Shown here piece after piece: positions 14,858 through 21,632 of a DNA stretch of 32,000 nt (positions are counted from its first letter, which is position 1; each line of letters opens with the position of its first letter). Under the pieces are notes generated by a model. That model saw only the letters and a program-made list of their open reading frames with translations. It did not search any database and was not told the DNA's origin. A program made the position numbers and the translations under genes. The DNA is from Ktedonobacterales bacterium (GTDB taxonomy: Bacteria; Chloroflexota; Ktedonobacteria; Ktedonobacterales; JADMIN01): the NCBI GenBank assembly GCA_025450405.1, contig JANWHL010000016.1, positions 1 through 32,000 on the forward strand. The letters are read 5' to 3'.

Positions 14858-16135
14858 TCACCAAATCTCCACGGCCCACAACGTCGGCACGTCCAGCGCA
14901 CGGGCGAGGGCGAGGCGCCGCTTTCCGTCAATAATGGCTACCTCGTCGTGGGGTGCGCTCGACGCACGCACCCGGACGACCACGGGGGGAGTCATGCGGT
15001 AACGGATACCGTCAAGTTTGAATTCGAGAACCCCGGTCAGGTCAAACAGGTTCAGCGCGTAATCGCGCAGGAGCAGGGCGTGCACCAAGCGCAATCCGCT
15101 GAGCTCAAGGCCGCGCTGGGCCGAGTCTAGCGCGCGGCCTTGAGTCGCTGGCAAGCGGCTTACGGCGAACTGGCGGGTCACCATGTGGGGTACGGTGGAC
15201 ATATGGGCGTCCATCTTGGTGATATGGCGGGTCGCGGCCTTCCAGCTCGCGTAGCGCAGGATGCGAAGGTCGTGTCGCGCGAGCGCCCCATTGGGCATCT
15301 TGGTGCAGTCCGATTTCGTCTCCGCTTGGTACGCTATTCCGTGCTCCAGGCAAGTCTGAGCGATGAACTCCTCGGCGTCGTGAACGCGTTCGAGCGCGAT
15401 GCGGTGTCCGTCAAGCGTGGTGGCGTCTATGAGCGCCCGCTTGCCCGCGAGACGGACATTGCCAATCGCGCTGTCCTCCCAGCACCATGCCGTGAGCGGG
15501 TTGCCAGGAGCCCAGACGGGTAGCCCGCGTGCGACGGAGTACTGGAAGGTGCGCTCGGCGCCGGCCCGGCCACTGCCAGCTAAGCCGTCGGCTTCACGCA
15601 CGATGTCGAGAAGTAGCAGCAGCCGCGCGCGCTCGCTCGCGGGGAGCCCGCTGGCGAAGCGTGCGAGCGGACGAGTGTATTGGCCAAGTTGGAGGGGGCG
15701 AACCCGACCACCCCACGCGCGACTTGGATGCCGAAAATTCGTGTCGTCGTGGTGGGCGATCAGATACCCGACAACCGTTGTAAAGGATTCACTCTCTGAT
15801 GGCCACGGCACCGTGGCTAACACCTCGAATGCCGTGGCTACACCCGCGACCACGTGCTCACGTCGATCGCGCGACCATGTTGGCACGAGCGCGCAATACC
15901 CGACATCATGAAGGAGGGCGGCGCATTGCACCGCCGCGCGTTCCGTCACGGTGAGCGCGGATTCAATCCTGTGCATGACCGCGAGCACATTGCGCTCGAC
16001 TTCGTGTGCGTGGTCCAGTCCATGGAATCGATCCGTCACCGTGGCACGCGCGAAGCACAAACGTACCCAGCTCCGCACATGCCGAATGAGAGCGTCGGCC
16101 TCGTCCGCGGCATCAGGTGTATCGGGTAGCAACAT
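14858..16135 (-). CDS. HD-domain phosphohydrolase fused to a C-terminal ParB/Srx-like domain
   Basis: Lies in ORF 14858..16162(-). I prefer the ATG at 16133-16135 (GGAG upstream). HD motifs are FHGLDHAHEVERN, AALLHDVGY, LIAHHDD and VREAD. The C-terminus PPVVVRVRASSAPHDEVAIIDGKRRLALARALDVPTLWAVEIW matches the ParB N-terminal/sulfiredoxin-fold signature (beta strand, then hh-DG-x-[HKR]-R-h-x-A-h). Confidence 0.7.
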   Translation of the reverse strand: MLLPDTPDAADEADALIRHVRSWVRLCFARATVTDRFHGLDHAHEVERNVLAVMHRIESALTVTERAAVQCAALLHDVGYCALVPTWSRDRREHVVAGVATAFEVLATVPWPSESESFTTVVGYLIAHHDDTNFRHPSRAWGGRVRPLQLGQYTRPLARFASGLPASERARLLLLLDIVREADGLAGSGRAGAERTFQYSVARGLPVWAPGNPLTAWCWEDSAIGNVRLAGKRALIDATTLDGHRIALERVHDAEEFIAQTCLEHGIAYQAETKSDCTKMPNGALARHDLRILRYASWKAATRHITKMDAHMSTVPHMVTRQFAVSRLPATQGRALDSAQRGLELSGLRLVHALLLRDYALNLFDLTGVLEFKLDGIRYRMTPPVVVRVRASSAPHDEVAIIDGKRRLALARALDVPTLWAVEIW

Positions 16136-16300
16136 GGTCGCGCTCCGTGACCGGCCAAGCACAAGTCGTCAGAGTGCGTAGCAAGAACCTTGCATGTGCA
16201 TGTAACGCCGTCTGGCCAAGCCAGATCGTCGGCACACACGACTCGACTCTAGCGCATACGAGGCGGTGGGGTGAGGTGGCCGGACGCGCTGGGCGAAGAA

Positions 16301-19300
16301 TTATGAGCCGTCGATGGGGTTGAGCACCGAGGTGGCGAATCCACGCACCTGCCTATCGTCGTCGTTGGCACGATCCAGGAAGACGTCGTCGGAGAGTGCG
16401 GCCCCATGGTCACGCAGCGCGGCAGCGCAATGCAGCGCGGCAAGGCGTACTTCGGGATTCCGATCGGCGCCCAGTGTCCGCACGAGGTCAATGAGATCCG
16501 GGGCGAGTGCCATGCCCGCACGCGCCAACCGTTCGAGTGACGCGCAACTCTCGCGCCTGACCCAGTAATGTGCGTCCCGCATAAGGCCAGCAAGTATCTC
16601 CGCCCGCGCCCCGTCTTCCGTAAAGCCGAGCGCGACAGGAAGCAAACTGGCAAGCGCCCACCGAATGCCTTCGTCCTCGTCCTCCAACAGCAGCAAGAAA
16701 AACGCGCGAATTCTCGCTGGTGTGCCCAACTCCTCGGCGCCCTCACTTACGACCTGTCGGATGTTTGCGTAGCGGTCCGGCTTCCAAGTGGAGTAAATAT
16801 CTGAGTGTTCGTCGGGCCGCTTGAGCACGCGGCTCGAGCGGGCGAGTCTTTCGCGGAGCGTCCAAAGTTGCTCCTCGTCACTCCCAACCGCTACAGGCGG
16901 CGAGGCCGTGTCTAAACTTTCGGTGACTGGGTGACGCGCTGTACCCATCAGGTCGACATTCGCCGAATAGTACGCCGCGAATCGCACGCGCGGGTCATAG
17001 TCATTCGCCAAAGTTGGCATGAGGGCGGCGGCCACCCGTCCAATCTCGGGCGCTCCGAGCGACCGGGCGAGCGCCCAACGGACATGAACGCTCTTGTCGC
17101 GCGCCAGCAGGTCGACGATTTCCGCGCCGCCATCGCCTCCGCGGACGATGTCTGGCACCCAGAAGGCCATGTGCCGACGCACAACCTCCTCAGGATCGCG
17201 CGCGAGACGGCGGAGCAAACCCAAAGCAACGTGCCGCACTTCGGCGTGCCAGGCCGCGGCTACGAGATCGCTTACGACACGCCATCGAACTTCATCAACG
17301 GGGTCACTGGCGAGGACACGTAGCACCTCCATTGCCCGATCGAGATCGAGCAACAATCCGTACTTGGCCTGAGCGACCGCTCGACGCAGACGCCAATCTC
17401 GCGGCGCGCGGCGCCGGCTCCACGCGGTAAAGAGGCCGAAGCACGCGTCATGGGCGGTGCGGCATAGGGTGTCTAGCGCACAGCCCACCGCGCGCCGCAC
17501 CCGCCAGTTAATGTCATCCGCCAGGCTTTCAAGCATGCCAAACGCGCGCGAGGGTTCTTGAAAGAGGTGGCCCGCGGCGAGCGCAGCCACTTCGCGATCC
17601 ATCCAATCGGTGCCGCTCGCGAGCAAGCGCAGCCGTTCTTCCGCGCCGGGAACATGGAGTGTGGCCACGTAACCAAGCGCGTTTGCCGCCGCCCAGCGAA
17701 CCGGAAAATGGTCGTCTCGGCCGAGTCTGGCGAGATATGGCAGACACGCGGCCAGGAGGGTGGGATCAGTCACCTTGAGGATGTAATCGCACACGAAGAT
17801 CCGCCAGTGCGCGTCAAGGTCAATCAAGTACTCCAGGAAATTGCGCGGTACAGTGGTATCGTCCACGAAGAGCAGGAGATACACCAGAATGCCCTGGATC
17901 GCGCGATATTTGGAGGCGATCTGGAGCAAGCTCCGCAAATCACTGGCGACCGCCGCGCTGTCGCGCCATGCCCAATCCCAGGTTTGGCGCAGGTGTCGAG
18001 CGATGGCGTACTCAAGAAAGGCATCGTACGTGAAGCCCACGAGATGCTGGTCATAGAGTCGATCGCGACGGGCATAGAGGATAACCCTCTCACTCAGCAA
18101 ATCGACATATTGATGCTCACCGATGAGGTCTATGACCTCAGCCTGGGTGATCTCCGTGCGGCGCGATTCGAACAGTCTACCGGCCAGACGATACACCGCG
18201 GTCTCGGTGTCATGGGTTTGGCGCGTGTGGAGCTTCTCGCGCCAATAGCGGTCGAAGATCTCCTTCCGATGGATGCCAGGAGGGATCGCGCCGTACTGGA
18301 AAGCCTCACAGAGGAATCGCAGCATGAGTGGATGGCGGCAGATCTCTTGAAGTGAGGGCCCCAGGCCCCCAGCAAATCCGTAAAACGCGGCATATTTGGC
18401 CCATGCGGTCGCGAGCTCCGCATCCGTGAAGGGTTCGACAAACATGCCCTTGGCCGTGCGCCCACCAGTCTGGCGGGGTTCATAGATGTGGCGCGTAAGC
18501 GCGGCATCGTCCTCGAATAATGGCCAGTCGACGTCGCGGCAGGTGAGGCACAATTTCATGCGCGTGCCGGTCATGTCCGTGAGGGCGTAACTCAAGCTCT
18601 GGCGCAGGTCGCTAATATGAGCGTTCTCATTGACCCCATCGACCATGATGAGCATGTCGGTGGCACCGGACCGCAGGGCGTGGTCGAGGACGGATGGGAG
18701 CGTGGCGGGATCCACGCCGTGTCCATAGCCAATGGCCAATTCCTCGGCGAGCACGCGCCACAAGCCTAGTGGTCCTGCCATGTGGGTGGTTCCGCGGATG
18801 AGGACTGTGGGAATGCGCGCGCTCCATCGGGCGGCAAGGTCGCAGAGGAGGTTGGTCTTGCCCATACCAGCTTCGCCAAGGATGGCTAAGCACGGCTGTT
18901 CACCATTGAGAAAGGGACGCATCTCCCTTTCCAGTCCATCGCGGCGGACGTAAAGATCGGCCGCGTACTTGGGCAGGGATGCGATTGCCCGCTTTACTGA
19001 GCGATCGCATGCGTCGCGCAATTCGTCGAGGTTTCGCGGCCCCTCGCGCGAGGCGGTGGGCGCTGTGCGAGCAAGCTCCGCGCCGATACTCGAAACGGCC
19101 GATAGCGGGACTCCCTCGCCGGACCAACCCCAATCACCGTCGCTCACGACATCCGCGTCTGGTGGCGAGGTGGCGCTGTCGGCCAAGCGCAAGCCGCGGC
19201 CGGCCGCGAGGAAGTCCTGGCGCTCACGCTCGGTCAGTCCCAGAGCCGTGGCTAGCCGAGAAAGCGTAGGCGCGTGATGGCGGCGAAGCAAGTCACGTTC

Positions 19301-19423
19301 GGCTTTGCCGATCGAGTCGATGCTCACGCCAGAAGCGTCGGCCAACTCGCTCTGGGTATAACCGAGGCGGACTCGGTAGCGTCGCAGCAGGTTACCGAAT
19401 GTCAGCGAGCTTACGGAGTCCAC
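16301..19423 (-). CDS. XRE-type HTH / NACHT-like P-loop STAND NTPase / HEAT-repeat protein (1040 aa)
   Basis: GTG at 19421-19423, preceded by GAGGTG. The HTH is LTFGNLLRRYRVRLGYTQSELADASGVSIDSIGKAERD. Walker A is AILGEAGMGKTNLL and Walker B is MLIMVDGVNE, with a NACHT-like HPLMLRFLCEAF segment. The C-terminal third has at least 9 HEAT-like repeats (for example PVRWAAANALG, NWRVRRAVGCAL, VHVRWALARSLG, NPEVRLAALHCA). Confidence 0.85.
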   Translation of the reverse strand: MDSVSSLTFGNLLRRYRVRLGYTQSELADASGVSIDSIGKAERDLLRRHHAPTLSRLATALGLTERERQDFLAAGRGLRLADSATSPPDADVVSDGDWGWSGEGVPLSAVSSIGAELARTAPTASREGPRNLDELRDACDRSVKRAIASLPKYAADLYVRRDGLEREMRPFLNGEQPCLAILGEAGMGKTNLLCDLAARWSARIPTVLIRGTTHMAGPLGLWRVLAEELAIGYGHGVDPATLPSVLDHALRSGATDMLIMVDGVNENAHISDLRQSLSYALTDMTGTRMKLCLTCRDVDWPLFEDDAALTRHIYEPRQTGGRTAKGMFVEPFTDAELATAWAKYAAFYGFAGGLGPSLQEICRHPLMLRFLCEAFQYGAIPPGIHRKEIFDRYWREKLHTRQTHDTETAVYRLAGRLFESRRTEITQAEVIDLIGEHQYVDLLSERVILYARRDRLYDQHLVGFTYDAFLEYAIARHLRQTWDWAWRDSAAVASDLRSLLQIASKYRAIQGILVYLLLFVDDTTVPRNFLEYLIDLDAHWRIFVCDYILKVTDPTLLAACLPYLARLGRDDHFPVRWAAANALGYVATLHVPGAEERLRLLASGTDWMDREVAALAAGHLFQEPSRAFGMLESLADDINWRVRRAVGCALDTLCRTAHDACFGLFTAWSRRRAPRDWRLRRAVAQAKYGLLLDLDRAMEVLRVLASDPVDEVRWRVVSDLVAAAWHAEVRHVALGLLRRLARDPEEVVRRHMAFWVPDIVRGGDGGAEIVDLLARDKSVHVRWALARSLGAPEIGRVAAALMPTLANDYDPRVRFAAYYSANVDLMGTARHPVTESLDTASPPVAVGSDEEQLWTLRERLARSSRVLKRPDEHSDIYSTWKPDRYANIRQVVSEGAEELGTPARIRAFFLLLLEDEDEGIRWALASLLPVALGFTEDGARAEILAGLMRDAHYWVRRESCASLERLARAGMALAPDLIDLVRTLGADRNPEVRLAALHCAAALRDHGAALSDDVFLDRANDDDRQVRGFATSVLNPIDGS

Positions 19424-19504
19424 TAGCGCGCACCTCTATGCGGAAATGGTCGAGTGAAGTGCCTTCAATTGGGAGTGCGGATGGATATCGTGGCGCTATC
19501 GTAG

Positions 19505-19537
19505 CACATTGGCACATTGGGAACAACCGGATTGTTC
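19505..19537. promoter_or_regulatory. tandem CACATTGG x2 followed by the palindrome GAACAA-N5-TTGTTC, upstream of the HTH-NACHT gene
   Basis: CACATTGG occurs at 19505-19512 and 19513-19520. GAACAACCGGATTGTTC is at 19521-19537, and a related CAATTGGGA lies near 19466. All sit 80-115 nt upstream of the GTG start at 19423, in a 484-nt divergent intergenic region. Confidence 0.3.
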
Positions 19538-19907
19538 AGGCCTTCGAGCTATCCGGCGCCAAGAATCCGTAAAAACTTCCGGATCATCTTCTGGTTTGCC
19601 CTTTTGCCTATGTCTCCCTCCGGTTATGCTCGTACCGGAGCGACGACGCGGCATGCATCCGCGTGTTGAGATGGCGCCGGAAAGCTCCGGGTGGCGCCGT
19701 GAAGCGTGCATCCAGTATGTGGTGCTTGCGCACCGGAAAGGCGGTGTACATGGTCTCAGGGTAACCGGGTTCCTGACAGAAAGCGGCCCGGAAGCCGTCT
19801 ATTCGCCGTAGGCGGCCGCCGGGTCTCGCGAGGTACGCACCCGTCCACACACGAGTTTTCAACACGCTCCACTCAAGAGCCATGCACGCACATGGAGGGC
19901 TATTCCT

Positions 19908-20147
19908 ATGCCTAAGCATACTCGAGTGCCGCTCGGCCCGCAAGCGCCAGACACTGGTGCCAGTCACATCTCGACGGCGCGCCGCCACGTTTTGTCCGCC
20001 GTTCTCGCCATATCCACCATGGCGACGCTCGCGTTTACACCAGTCGTGGCGCCGTTAGCGGCGCACGCGTTCATTTCGGCTCATCACCCCGTCGCGGCGG
20101 TTCCGCCCCGCGGATGGGGATGTGGCAGCATTCCCCTTCCGTGCTAA
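19908..20147 (+). CDS. small exported peptide precursor (79 aa), hypothetical
   Basis: ATG at 19908 has GGAGGG 8 nt upstream. The N-region contains TARRHVL (Tat-like RR). A hydrophobic core, SAVLAISTMATLAFTPVVAPLAA, and an AHA|F cleavage-type site follow. The predicted 25-aa mature peptide FISAHHPVAAVPPRGWGCGSIPLPC has two Cys. A very strong hairpin follows the ORF. It is short and no homology could be assessed. Confidence 0.4.
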   Translation: MPKHTRVPLGPQAPDTGASHISTARRHVLSAVLAISTMATLAFTPVVAPLAAHAFISAHHPVAAVPPRGWGCGSIPLPC

Positions 20148-20196
20148 CGCGTTGTCAACCACGCAATAGGCGTGAGTGCCGTGTTACTCACGTAGC

Positions 20197-20232
20197 GAGC
20201 GTCCGGATCCCGCAGGCGGGATCCGGACGCTC
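20197..20232 (+). terminator. perfect 17-nt inverted repeat (hairpin) downstream of the small ORF
   Basis: The sequence is GAGCGTCCGGATCCCGC-AG-GCGGGATCCGGACGCTC, with perfectly complementary arms at 20197-20213 and 20216-20232. There is no U-tract. A second 6-bp hairpin, GTGAGT...ACTCAC, lies at about 20172-20191. Confidence 0.5.
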
Positions 20233-20387
20233 CGCACGTACTGAGTCAGCATGGGAAGCGCGGCTACGCCGTGTGATACAGTACTCTCCACGTCAGCCGC
20301 GCGATCCGGGCTGCCCTGGGTTTAGCCGACGCATACGTGGTTCAGCGAACCGGCGATGGCACCACCAACGCAGACAGGAGCCCGACA

Positions 20388-21632
20388 ATGGATGACGGAG
20401 ACGGGAGCAACGAGCGCGCTTTGTCGCCTGGTGGAGACGAGTCTGATTCGGAGGACACGTGGCACTTACCCGACGACCTTAGCTGGCACCACGAGCAGGG
20501 CTATTCCGAATCCGTCGCCGTGGCGCTTGGTTGTGCGCATCGGCGCTTGCGCGGCAAGGGTGACGTCGTGGCATATAGACGGGCGCTCGCTTGCGTTCAG
20601 CCAGTCATGGGTGGCGGCATGTCAGAGCGACAGCGGCTCCATGTCCTCTTCATTGTGGCGCTCGCTCATGCGTCGACATATCCGCAAGACGCGGCGCTGG
20701 ATCCAATTGATGCAGCGATCGAGTTGGCGATCAATCTGGACGAGCGGCGAGCTCTCGAGGACTTGCTCTACCTCCGAGGCTCGATCAATCGGGCTCTGCT
20801 CGCGGCGCCCGACGCTGTCGACGACCTGGAAGACTGCCTGGATCTTCTGGATGTCCACTCATTGGCGCGCGCGCCGACGCCCGCGCAGGTGAAATTCAGG
20901 CTGGACGCGACGCTACACCTGGCCGGTACGAAGTTTCTCCTCGGCGACCACGAAATGGCCGCCCGGCTACTCGACCAGGCCGAAAACCTGGTCACGCGGG
21001 CGCCGGACAGTGTGACCCAGAAGGCGATCCTATCATGGACCAGAGCTTTGCTTCTTCGGTGGCGCGGCGAGTTGGAAGTGGCACTGACCACGGCCATGAT
21101 TGCGGCCGAGACACTGCGCGTTCACGGGCATCCCGGCAATGCCAGCCGTGCGCAGACGTTGGTGGCGGACATCGCGCTAGACCTCACCGAGCGCCTCAAT
21201 CATGTCGAGTGCCCGGACGCGGCACGCGAATTTCTCACGCTCGGTGAGGCGTATGTACAACGCGCGCTGGATCTGGCACAGCAGGGAGACGTAGCATCGA
21301 GCGAAGCGATGGCACGTGTCACTCAGGCTCGCTGGGAACGACTGAGCCATGGGGTGAGTCACGAAGGTCTCCTGCATGAGCTCTCCGCGATTGGGCACTC
21401 GCACCGCGACGTCGCGCTCGAGGCATTGGCGTTTGCCGAACTGGGAGCCGACTTCGAAGCGCGCGGCGATCTGGAATCCGCGATCCATTGGTACAAACGG
21501 GCACTCGCGATCCTGAACGAGTCCAAGATGACCGCACTCGGCGTTTGGGCGCGCCGCGCGCTCTGGCGCCTGAGCGGAGAGATGTCGTCCGCCCAAGACA
21601 CGGCGGGTTCGGGACCACGGTCGGCAAGATAG
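20388..21632 (+). CDS. hypothetical all-helical TPR-like protein with acidic N-terminus
   Basis: ATG at 20388, preceded by AGGAG at 8-nt spacing. The ORF is long and uninterrupted, with Leu/Ala/Glu/Arg-rich helical-repeat character (for example GDLESAIHWYKRALAILNE). No catalytic motif is recognised. Confidence 0.6.
   Translation: MDDGDGSNERALSPGGDESDSEDTWHLPDDLSWHHEQGYSESVAVALGCAHRRLRGKGDVVAYRRALACVQPVMGGGMSERQRLHVLFIVALAHASTYPQDAALDPIDAAIELAINLDERRALEDLLYLRGSINRALLAAPDAVDDLEDCLDLLDVHSLARAPTPAQVKFRLDATLHLAGTKFLLGDHEMAARLLDQAENLVTRAPDSVTQKAILSWTRALLLRWRGELEVALTTAMIAAETLRVHGHPGNASRAQTLVADIALDLTERLNHVECPDAAREFLTLGEAYVQRALDLAQQGDVASSEAMARVTQARWERLSHGVSHEGLLHELSAIGHSHRDVALEALAFAELGADFEARGDLESAIHWYKRALAILNESKMTALGVWARRALWRLSGEMSSAQDTAGSGPRSAR

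Follow-up and report, generated by a model that had tools for sequence, protein, structure and literature searches.

Gene organization of an HTH-STAND-HEAT protein, an HD-ParB/Srx fusion protein and a conserved small ORF-TPR gene pair in Ktedonobacterales

Results

Gene content of the locus

Four consecutive genes were identified as a block (14858-21632) in a 32-kb stretch of the chromosome of a soil Ktedonobacterales bacterium (contig JANWHL010000016.1, positions 1 to 32,000; hereafter the window). Their order is gene B, gene A, a small open reading frame (ORF) and a TPR gene (Table 1). Protein A combines an N-terminal helix-turn-helix (HTH) with a STAND NTPase module and C-terminal HEAT repeats, and protein B is a fusion of an HD phosphohydrolase domain to a ParB/Srx-fold domain. 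An earlier note on this DNA, made from the sequence, had proposed A and B as a two-gene module. Both genes are present as it described them, with B on the same strand and 165 nucleotides (nt) downstream of A, but they do not constitute a two-gene unit, because the constant partners of A are the small ORF and the TPR gene on its other side. The same A and B sequences are found as consecutive genes (HEY7778822.1 and HEY7778823.1) in a Ktedonobacterales metagenome-assembled genome, where both are annotated 'hypothetical protein'.

Table 1. Coordinates of the features of the block, of related loci and of a second HTH-NACHT-TPR gene. Positions refer to the window unless a locus (L) is named; aa, amino acids.
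Feature	Position	Strand	Basis or remarks
Gene A, 1040-aa HTH-STAND-HEAT protein	16301..19423	-	ORF, domain searches, homologue alignment
A residues 9-70, XRE/Cro-type HTH	19214..19399	-	Pfam HTH_31 and HTH_3; PHROG; profile match to 8bny
A residues 174-513, STAND NTPase module (Walker A, Walker B, CRDVDW, CRHPLM, helical region after)	17885..18904	-	Avs2 matches
A residues ~556-1030, HEAT-repeat solenoid of ~10-12 repeats, presumed sensor	16334..17758	-	HEAT_2, profile, signature regular expression
Gene B, 425-aa HD + ParB/Srx fusion, short form of the HD + ParB-CE family	14858..16135	-	ORF, homologues, models
B residues 1-265, YpgQ-like HD phosphohydrolase domain with all metal-ligand motifs	15341..16135	-	Alignment, Foldseek
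B residues 285-425, ParB/Srx-fold domain with DGKRR motif	14861..15283	-	Foldseek of domain model; Pfam matches of homologues
Small ORF, 79 aa, Shine-Dalgarno GGAGGG	19908..20147	+	Alignment, tblastn, gene tables
Possible leader or operator region, conserved, 5' of small ORF	19755..19907	+	DNA-level conservation with L004, L005, L022, L024
TPR gene, up to 431 aa	20337..21632	+	Weak Pfam TPR_12, TPR_MalT and TPR-S matches
Small-ORF counterparts, 78-90 aa	L004 7370-7606(-); L005 5390-5626(-); L007 5635-5907(+); L022 3261-3506(-); L024 1728-1964(-)		
Pairs of long-form HD + ParB-CE gene and ~400-aa gene	L001 10001-12816; L012 8001-10753; L014 672-4429; L008 14-2853		
Cluster ending in short form P0010: dCMP deaminase, thymidylate kinase, 5-hydroxymethyldeoxyuridine DNA-kinase helical-domain protein (E 2e-59), ThyA-like gene	L009 1375-5977		
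Second HTH-NACHT-TPR protein, unrelated to A, 858 aa	9040-11616	-	GC3 0.81 (normal for the window)

Protein A is an HTH-STAND-HEAT protein

The XRE HTH that had been noted in A was recovered with Pfam HTH_31 (E 1e-9), HTH_3 (E 1e-7) and a PHROG transcriptional regulator family (E 7e-9). A profile of the A family, comprising 11 members (homologues at 37-51% identity to A), matched the phage immunity repressor structure 8bny in the same region (E 4e-6), and the HTH is present in 8 of the 11 members.

The NTPase part of A carries the Walker A motif GEAGMGKT and the Walker B motif MLIMVDGVNEN (DG[IV]NEN in the family). Residues G183, A185, G186, G188, K189, D262, N265, E266 and N267 are invariant across the 11 homologues, and so are CRDVDW (R296) and CRHPLM (H364, P365); R296 may be the sensor I arginine, to judge by its position. 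The Avs2 NTPase module was matched in PADLOC (E 2e-15, residues 174-513) and in NCBIfam (E 8e-11, residues 175-518), and the Avs2 structure 9o4e was the only STAND structure found with the A-family profile (E 6e-7); the A sequence alone yielded only HTH and HEAT matches in the PDB. A thus has the features of the STAND superfamily, i.e. P-loop motifs and a helical/winged-helix module, followed by C-terminal repeats. The 'NACHT-like' P-loop NTPase of the earlier description is therefore upheld as a STAND module with Avs2-like, invariant motifs, but not as a member of Pfam NACHT (PF05729), for which A scores 18.5 bits against a cutoff of 26.7, over residues 180-202 only. The generic P-loop match of A is likewise below the Pfam threshold, and the A relatives P0028, P0030 and P0032 also stay below the NACHT cutoff (19-25 bits).

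The C-terminal half of A contains HEAT_2 matches in six stretches (E 2.5e-19), and the A-family profile matched the PP2A-A subunit and alphaRep HEAT proteins at E values as low as 3e-22. A search with a HEAT signature regular expression gave 10 strict and 2 degenerate matches, in line with the at least nine HEAT-like repeats counted before.

The STAND-HEAT body was also observed behind other N-terminal heads: P0030 carries DUF4062 there, P0028 an unassigned region and P0031 a hydrophobic segment that possibly lies in the membrane. P0030 is 38% identical to A across the family alignment (best BLASTP local alignment, 41% over 87% of A). P0032, with 25% identity over 36% of A, has a DUF4062 head and sub-threshold NACHT and HEAT matches. 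Such an exchange of heads is typical of NLR-like immune proteins.

Protein B has an HD phosphohydrolase domain and an incomplete ParB-CE domain

Translation of gene B can start at a GTG (14858-16162) or at the ATG that gives the 425-residue form, which is 99% identical to database cluster P0001. The Pfam HD match of window B alone is weak (E 0.009; 16.7 bits versus a 22-bit cutoff). The HD residues H38/H42, H76-D77, H94, H129-D130-D131 and D183 are invariant across an alignment of 18 sequences. In the AlphaFold 2 model of B (mean predicted local distance difference test score, pLDDT, 87.8; predicted template modelling score 0.88) the N-terminal part is helical, and the best Foldseek matches are the YpgQ-type HD hydrolases 3djb, 2qgs and 5dqv (E ~1e-4, target-normalised template modelling (TM) score ~0.7). 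The alignment and the model show the H...HD...D arrangement in an all-helical fold that characterizes HD phosphohydrolases, as had been supposed. YpgQ is an Mn-dependent (d)NTP pyrophosphohydrolase. B residues 1-265 have the same H..HD..D metal site as the YpgQ-type enzymes, their best structural match, but the identity is only 15-19% and B differs by a long conserved insert (GAERTF...NAWCWEESAIGNVRLAAKRALIDA) and by the fused ParB/Srx domain.

The last 146 residues of B were also modelled alone (pLDDT 84.5). All top 50 Foldseek matches of this model in the PDB have the ParB/Srx fold (sulfiredoxin, ParB, Noc, PadC, KorB, SbnI and SerK), with modest scores (best E 8.7e-4, TM 0.4-0.55). By this modelling the ParB/Srx-like C-terminus of the earlier note is confirmed. 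Its DGKRR motif aligns to DGLHR of the HD + ParB-CE family and is covered by a weak profile match to SbnI (E 0.23). Full-length homologues score 53-70 bits with Pfam PF24392 (ParB-CE, 147 positions, 23-bit cutoff); P0004, the closest short form, reaches 23.9 bits over positions 6-115 of the model. Window B aligns along its whole length to the ParB-CE homologues and ends about two thirds into the domain; the homology is thus clear and the domain incomplete. No frameshifted remnant of the missing C-terminal third was found elsewhere in the window.

Relatives of B and their usual neighbours

Homologues of B (n = 19, 30-44% identity) were collected from Chloroflexota/Ktedonobacteria. Those at 37-44% identity match Pfam HD and, with E values of 1e-14 to 1e-19, ParB-CE, and one of them matches HD-CE (PF24391). 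An exhaustive HMMER search of 1.84 billion sequences returned 724 relatives at E <= 1e-3, of which many are stand-alone ParB-CE proteins of ~200 aa; a few dozen 50%-identity representatives are full-length HD + ParB-CE proteins. The fusion is therefore rare but already catalogued. The ParB-CE and HD-CE families were reportedly defined by Nicastro, Burroughs, Iyer and Aravind in NAR in 2023. ParB goes unmentioned in Kaur et al. 2020 and 2021, in which the source of the 'CE' domains was sought, HD fusions are not among the entries of a 2025 PNAS survey of the ParB-CTPase fold, and no experimental work on the HD + ParB-CE family was found in the searchable literature. The 'CE' in the Pfam names stands for conflict effector (PMC12871103).

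The long-form HD + ParB-CE genes are followed, after a gap of 45-100 nt, by a gene for an HD + thymidylate-kinase fusion (~400 aa) in L001-3, L012/13 and L014/15; an unannotated 399-aa ORF takes this position in L008. This pair is the commonest context of the B family and is apparently uncharacterized. A dCTP-deaminase-like gene precedes the pair in L014, and dCTP-deaminase/dUTPase-like neighbours are found beside some long forms. Among the short forms, P0009 adjoins a thymidylate kinase gene and P0010 ends a cluster (Table 1) that, on a bacterial-looking contig, looks like a thymidine hypermodification pathway. In a neighbour-joining tree of the B family the short forms group together, with A-linked and kinase-linked members interleaved. 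Neither an A nor a TPR homologue was found beside B relatives in six metagenomic loci retrieved with the pattern YALSLFDL, all of the long-form or HD-thymidylate-kinase type.

On the basis of the intact HD site, the YpgQ-like fold and the pyrimidine-deoxynucleotide genes beside its relatives, we infer that B would hydrolyse (deoxy)nucleotides, most likely pyrimidine dNTPs or dNMPs.

Linkage of A and B

The contigs of A and B homologues were compared with the window proteins by tblastn. In L010 and L023, B lies directly 3' of A with gaps of 15-27 nt (A 48-50% and B 44-48% identical to the window proteins); the two loci count as one lineage, because their A proteins are 96% identical. In L007, A is divergent to a small ORF-TPR-B array (A 45% and B 39% identity). 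With the window included, A and B thus occur together in three independent lineages and in two gene orders. None of the flanking genes of the window recurs at L010, L023 or L007, and hence the conservation is specific to the module. The genomic linkage of the pair, proposed earlier as something to be checked, is borne out in these three lineages, but not in a further lineage that has A without B (see Discussion), and most relatives of B have no STAND neighbour. In the window, no terminator-like site is present in the 165 nt between A and the ATG of B.

The four genes of the block also stand out by the G+C content at third codon positions (GC3), which is 0.73 for B, 0.71 for A, 0.68 for the small ORF and 0.71 for the TPR gene. 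These are the four lowest values among the 19 genes of the window, the other 15 being at 0.77-0.89; by our own estimate, the chance that the four lowest of 19 values are consecutive is ~0.004. The common GC3 indicates that B shares its history or expression class with the other three genes.

These data bear on the possibility that A and B are not coupled at all, B being a housekeeping pyrimidine-nucleotide hydrolase that sits beside an unrelated STAND regulator through shared descent in Ktedonobacterales. Such an explanation would fit the commonest partners of the B family, which are nucleotide-metabolism genes and not STAND proteins, the occurrence of A without B in one lineage, and the origin of all linked examples from a single order. 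However, the linkage holds at 43-50% protein identity though every flanking gene differs, and it has outlasted rearrangement, since B follows A in two lineages but the TPR gene in a third. The gaps of 15-27 nt are operon-like, and the low GC3 of B matches that of the other three genes. Moreover, repeated chance adjacency with A is unlikely given the rarity of the fused HD + ParB-CE family. We consider the absence of coupling improbable.

Invariant partners of A: a small ORF and a TPR gene

Each of the six loci with enough sequence (the window, L004, L005, L007, L022 and L024/25) shows A beside the small ORF and a TPR gene whose product has ~420 aa, and the two partners are thus invariant. The TPR homologues that adjoin A in the five other loci are 45-49% identical to the window protein, and wherever gene tables give the strand the TPR gene is divergent from A, with an ORF of 78-90 aa directly upstream of it. 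The true start of the window TPR gene is probably some tens of codons downstream of 20337. A 121-aa ORF upstream in L023 was considered as a small-peptide gene and rejected, as it resembles a fragment of a TPR-like gene.

The N-terminus of the small ORF is signal-peptide-like, with RR and a hydrophobic segment that ends in AHA. The C-terminus has the form RG-x-GCGGxPLPC, with two cysteines, in the alignment of the window, L004, L005 and L007 sequences, which represents about three independent lineages. Matches were also obtained by tblastn in L022 and L005, and genes of 78-81 aa are called at the equivalent position. To judge from these features, the product of the small ORF may be a secreted peptide with a disulfide loop.

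Upstream of the small ORF, ~150 nt of DNA are kept between the window and the L004/5/22/24 clade, although the proteins are only ~45% identical; this comparison involves two independent lineages. RNAalifold predicts a hairpin at ~19790-19835, in which 4-5 pairs are kept via changes on both sides. Neither the window nor the A/small-ORF intergenic region matched an Rfam family, two sub-threshold miRNA models reflecting a GC-rich hairpin only. Judged by its conservation, the region could function as leader RNA or as an operator. The palindrome CCATGCACG-N-CATGG borders the Shine-Dalgarno sequence of the small ORF.

Further repeats were seen in the intergenic DNA. A perfect GC-rich hairpin, GCGTCCGGATCCCGC-AG-GCGGGATCCGGACGC, is located between the small ORF and the TPR gene at ~20199-20230; it has no T-tract and might dampen read-through towards the TPR gene. 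A tandem direct repeat, GCACATTG-GCACATTG, followed at once by the palindrome GAACAACCGGATTGTTC, is located at 19503-19537, ~80-115 nt 5' of the start codon of A, and the motif CAATTGTG is present in the equivalent region of the L004/5/22/24 loci. The repeat-palindrome is a candidate operator for the HTH of A.

The small ORF and the TPR gene are reminiscent of RRNPP systems in that a signal-like small ORF is directly 5' of a TPR gene; the TPR protein has no HTH. The locus could accordingly be read as a peptide-signalling or developmental circuit, in which a secreted, looped peptide would be re-imported, sensed by the cytoplasmic TPR protein in RRNPP fashion and made to modulate A, with B as a metabolic output that would serve the dormancy or sporulation of these filamentous bacteria rather than defence. 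The invariance of the two partners, the signal-like N-terminus ending in AHA, the conserved CGGxPLPC with its two cysteines, the conserved leader and the housekeeping chromosomal surroundings are in keeping with such a circuit. So is the presence of a second HTH-NACHT-TPR gene in the window (Table 1) and of similar HTH-AAA_16-TPR genes near A in L004 and L005, which points to an expanded family of HTH-headed STAND regulators in genomes carrying A. On the other hand, secretion, processing and re-import are predictions from the peptide sequence, the TPR protein lacks an HTH and gives weak, generic TPR matches, the block contains no peptide transporter or processing protease, and the small-ORF alignment amounts to about three independent lineages. 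A circuit of this kind is, in our view, quite unlikely.

Surroundings of the block

The compositional block is set in an otherwise housekeeping region. The window ORFs beyond it encode, among others, an ABC transporter, PadR, MntH, DtxR, NmrA, a flavin monooxygenase, a GH20 hexosaminidase, trigger factor, ClpX and Lon. No integrase, transposase or recognized defence gene was found within the 32-kb window.

Comparison with known systems

Avs2 (AVAST type 2, an antiphage STAND protein; NCBIfam NF041813, PADLOC, PDB 9o4e) is the system to which A bears the closest resemblance in sequence. Homology to Avs2 covers the NTPase and helical parts of A (residues ~165-515), and the two proteins share an overall layout, with the output at the N-terminus, then the STAND module and a helical-repeat sensor at the C-terminus. 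A differs in having an XRE HTH rather than a nuclease-type effector, canonical HEAT repeats at the C-terminus, conserved small-ORF and TPR partners, and housekeeping surroundings. A is excluded as Avs2 proper, since it scores 40.7 bits against an equivalog cutoff of 1000 bits, and over the NTPase region only.

GutR has its HTH at the N-terminus, as has A. GutR, MalT and AfsR are non-immune STAND proteins (bioRxiv 10.64898/2026.01.04.697583). A resembles them in the fusion of a DNA-binding domain, a STAND NTPase and a helical-repeat sensor and, by analogy, in a presumed ligand-gated oligomerization that would drive transcription. However, the sensor of A is built of HEAT and not of TPR/MalT-type repeats, its HTH is XRE and not LuxR or SARP, and no sequence similarity to the three proteins was detected in the PDB search or with the family profile.

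DUF4062 is a TIR-like NADase used in antiphage defence (Swarozyc, TEP1; bioRxiv 10.64898/2026.05.01.722283). The DUF4062-NACHT protein P0030 has an A-like STAND-HEAT body behind its DUF4062 head. As A has an HTH where these relatives have the NADase, its output should be DNA binding and not NAD+ cleavage.

With the ParB-CE/HD-CE families B shares the ParB/Srx fold of its C-terminus and a predicted nucleotide-targeting role, but window B stops ~85 aa short of the domain end and reads DGKRR where the family has DGLHR; also, the long forms pair with HD-thymidylate-kinase genes whereas window B pairs with a STAND protein. The GmrSD type IV restriction enzymes, invoked earlier as an analogy, belong with SspE and BrxU to the proteins in which DUF262, a ParB-like NTPase with a DGQQR motif, is fused to the nuclease DUF1524. 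The analogy holds insofar as B, too, has a ParB/Srx-fold nucleotide-binding domain and a metal-dependent hydrolase in one polypeptide. It fails in that the hydrolase of B is N-terminal (reversed order) and an HD phosphohydrolase rather than a His-Me nuclease; DUF262 and DUF1524 are absent among the Pfam matches at E <= 0.1, as is any nuclease domain. Nothing suggests DNA as the substrate of B.

In PADLOC-DB v2.0.0, no match was obtained for B, for the TPR protein or for the B homologues P0014 and P0010, the homologue P0005 gave a weak Cas3 HD match only, and A was matched by the Avs2 model in part and by HTH models only; the pair thus corresponds to no described system in PADLOC. The combination of an XRE-headed STAND-HEAT protein, a Cys-peptide ORF with a TPR gene, and a short-form HD-ParB/Srx protein matched no system in the libraries searched. 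That the combination of A and B was unrecognized, as the earlier note had it, is correct to the extent that B has no PADLOC model and A only the NTPase part of Avs2, but the HD + ParB fusion was already in Pfam. The building blocks of A and B, and the theme of a STAND protein with a nucleotide-targeting effector, are already known.

The resemblance to Avs2 raises the possibility of abortive infection, in which the HEAT repeats would sense a phage protein, oligomerized A would activate B by contact, B would deplete nucleotides, and the HTH would autoregulate or tether. This would agree with the Avs2-like NTPase module, with the STAND-HEAT relatives that carry the DUF4062 NADase, with the 'conflict effector' Pfam domains in the B homologues and with the atypical GC3 of the block; nucleotide depletion is, moreover, an established defence strategy (PMC12871103). 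Yet no PADLOC model fits B or full-length A, the surroundings are of the housekeeping type and devoid of integrase, transposase and other defence genes throughout the 32 kb, and the A/peptide/TPR unit looks vertically inherited, being fixed beside nuoA in one lineage, which lacks B. B contains no adaptor or effector-associated domain for docking onto A. Finally, no relatives of the ParB-CE domain were found in viral contigs, and there is thus no sign of an arms race. Abortive infection by contact is, on balance, somewhat unlikely.

Discussion

We favour, at a probability of roughly 45%, the interpretation that A is a ligand-gated STAND transcription factor, organized in a unit with the small ORF and the TPR gene, and co-transcribed with B as an accessory, nucleotide-hydrolysing output. 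A is read as a ligand-gated transcription factor because of its HTH-NTPase-HEAT architecture, the HTH in 8 of the 11 family members and the conserved divergent regulatory region. Co-transcription of B with A is suggested by the operon-like gaps and the lack of a terminator-like site. The general logic of the earlier proposal, i.e. a sensor-switch-HTH protein with an HD/ParB-like enzyme as partner, is supported by the domains and by the linkage.

In the favoured mechanism, a ligand would be bound by the HEAT solenoid of A, possibly relayed via the TPR protein and the small peptide. The ligand would license nucleotide-dependent oligomerization of A, in the manner of GutR, MalT and AfsR, and this would gather the N-terminal HTH domains on the DNA between A and the small ORF. 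A would thereby control both the A-B and the peptide-TPR transcripts. B, presumably made from the same transcript as A, would be the enzymatic output and hydrolyse (deoxy)nucleotides, with its ParB/Srx domain acting as a nucleotide-binding regulatory site or as a second catalytic site. Overall, the nucleotide pool would be altered or depleted in a regulated way, for either phage defence or growth arrest. The Avs2-like NTPase, the DUF4062-headed relatives P0030 and P0032 and the 'conflict effector' label of the B family speak for defence. The housekeeping surroundings, the apparent vertical inheritance beside nuoA in one lineage, the partnership with the peptide and TPR genes and the lack of a matching PADLOC system speak for regulation or signalling.

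Several observations weigh against this interpretation. The loci represent ~4 independent lineages, all from one bacterial order. In the fourth of these (L004, L005/L006, L022 and L024/25, whose A proteins share 70-86% identity with one another), A keeps the small ORF and the TPR gene but is followed directly by nuoA, and B is missing; A can therefore do without B. Relatives of B mostly lack a STAND neighbour, and most of them lie beside HD-thymidylate-kinase or other pyrimidine-nucleotide genes. No operator common to the A-B gap and the A/small-ORF gap was found, only chance 9-mers. As for B itself, the 18-sequence alignment shows that window B is without the ~85-aa C-terminal extension, the last third of ParB-CE, and window B alone yields neither a ParB-CE nor an HD-CE match in Pfam at E <= 0.1 and no match at all for its C-terminus. 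Lastly, the existence of STAND-HEAT relatives headed by a DUF4062 NADase suggests the chassis of an immune receptor rather than a plain regulator.

A more elaborate version, in which an NLR-like STAND chassis (Avs2-type NTPase and HEAT sensor) that bears a TIR-like NADase head in other proteins has been rewired in filamentous Ktedonobacterales to a transcription factor that is gated by a secreted Cys-loop peptide via the TPR protein and drives nucleotide depletion by the HD-ParB/Srx protein in some lineages, strikes us as very doubtful. If true, it would imply an immune or dormancy response that a peptide coordinates at the level of the population in a multicellular bacterium.

For the ligand-gated transcription factor that we favour, as for the B family at large, the implications are the following. 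The locus is a compact case for the study of HD + ParB-CE proteins, with one clear upstream switch and a short-form enzyme that has all the HD catalytic residues; should B be no more than a housekeeping nucleotide hydrolase, what remains is an ordinary lineage-specific regulator locus. The occurrence of one STAND-HEAT chassis with several heads (HTH, DUF4062 NADase and others) bears on the interconversion of NLR-like immune receptors and STAND transcription regulators. Very few bacterial NLR-like proteins have a known ligand. Should the small Cys-peptide ORF, the TPR gene and the conserved leader, all of them hitherto undescribed, feed into A, they would constitute a natural ligand pathway for such a protein.

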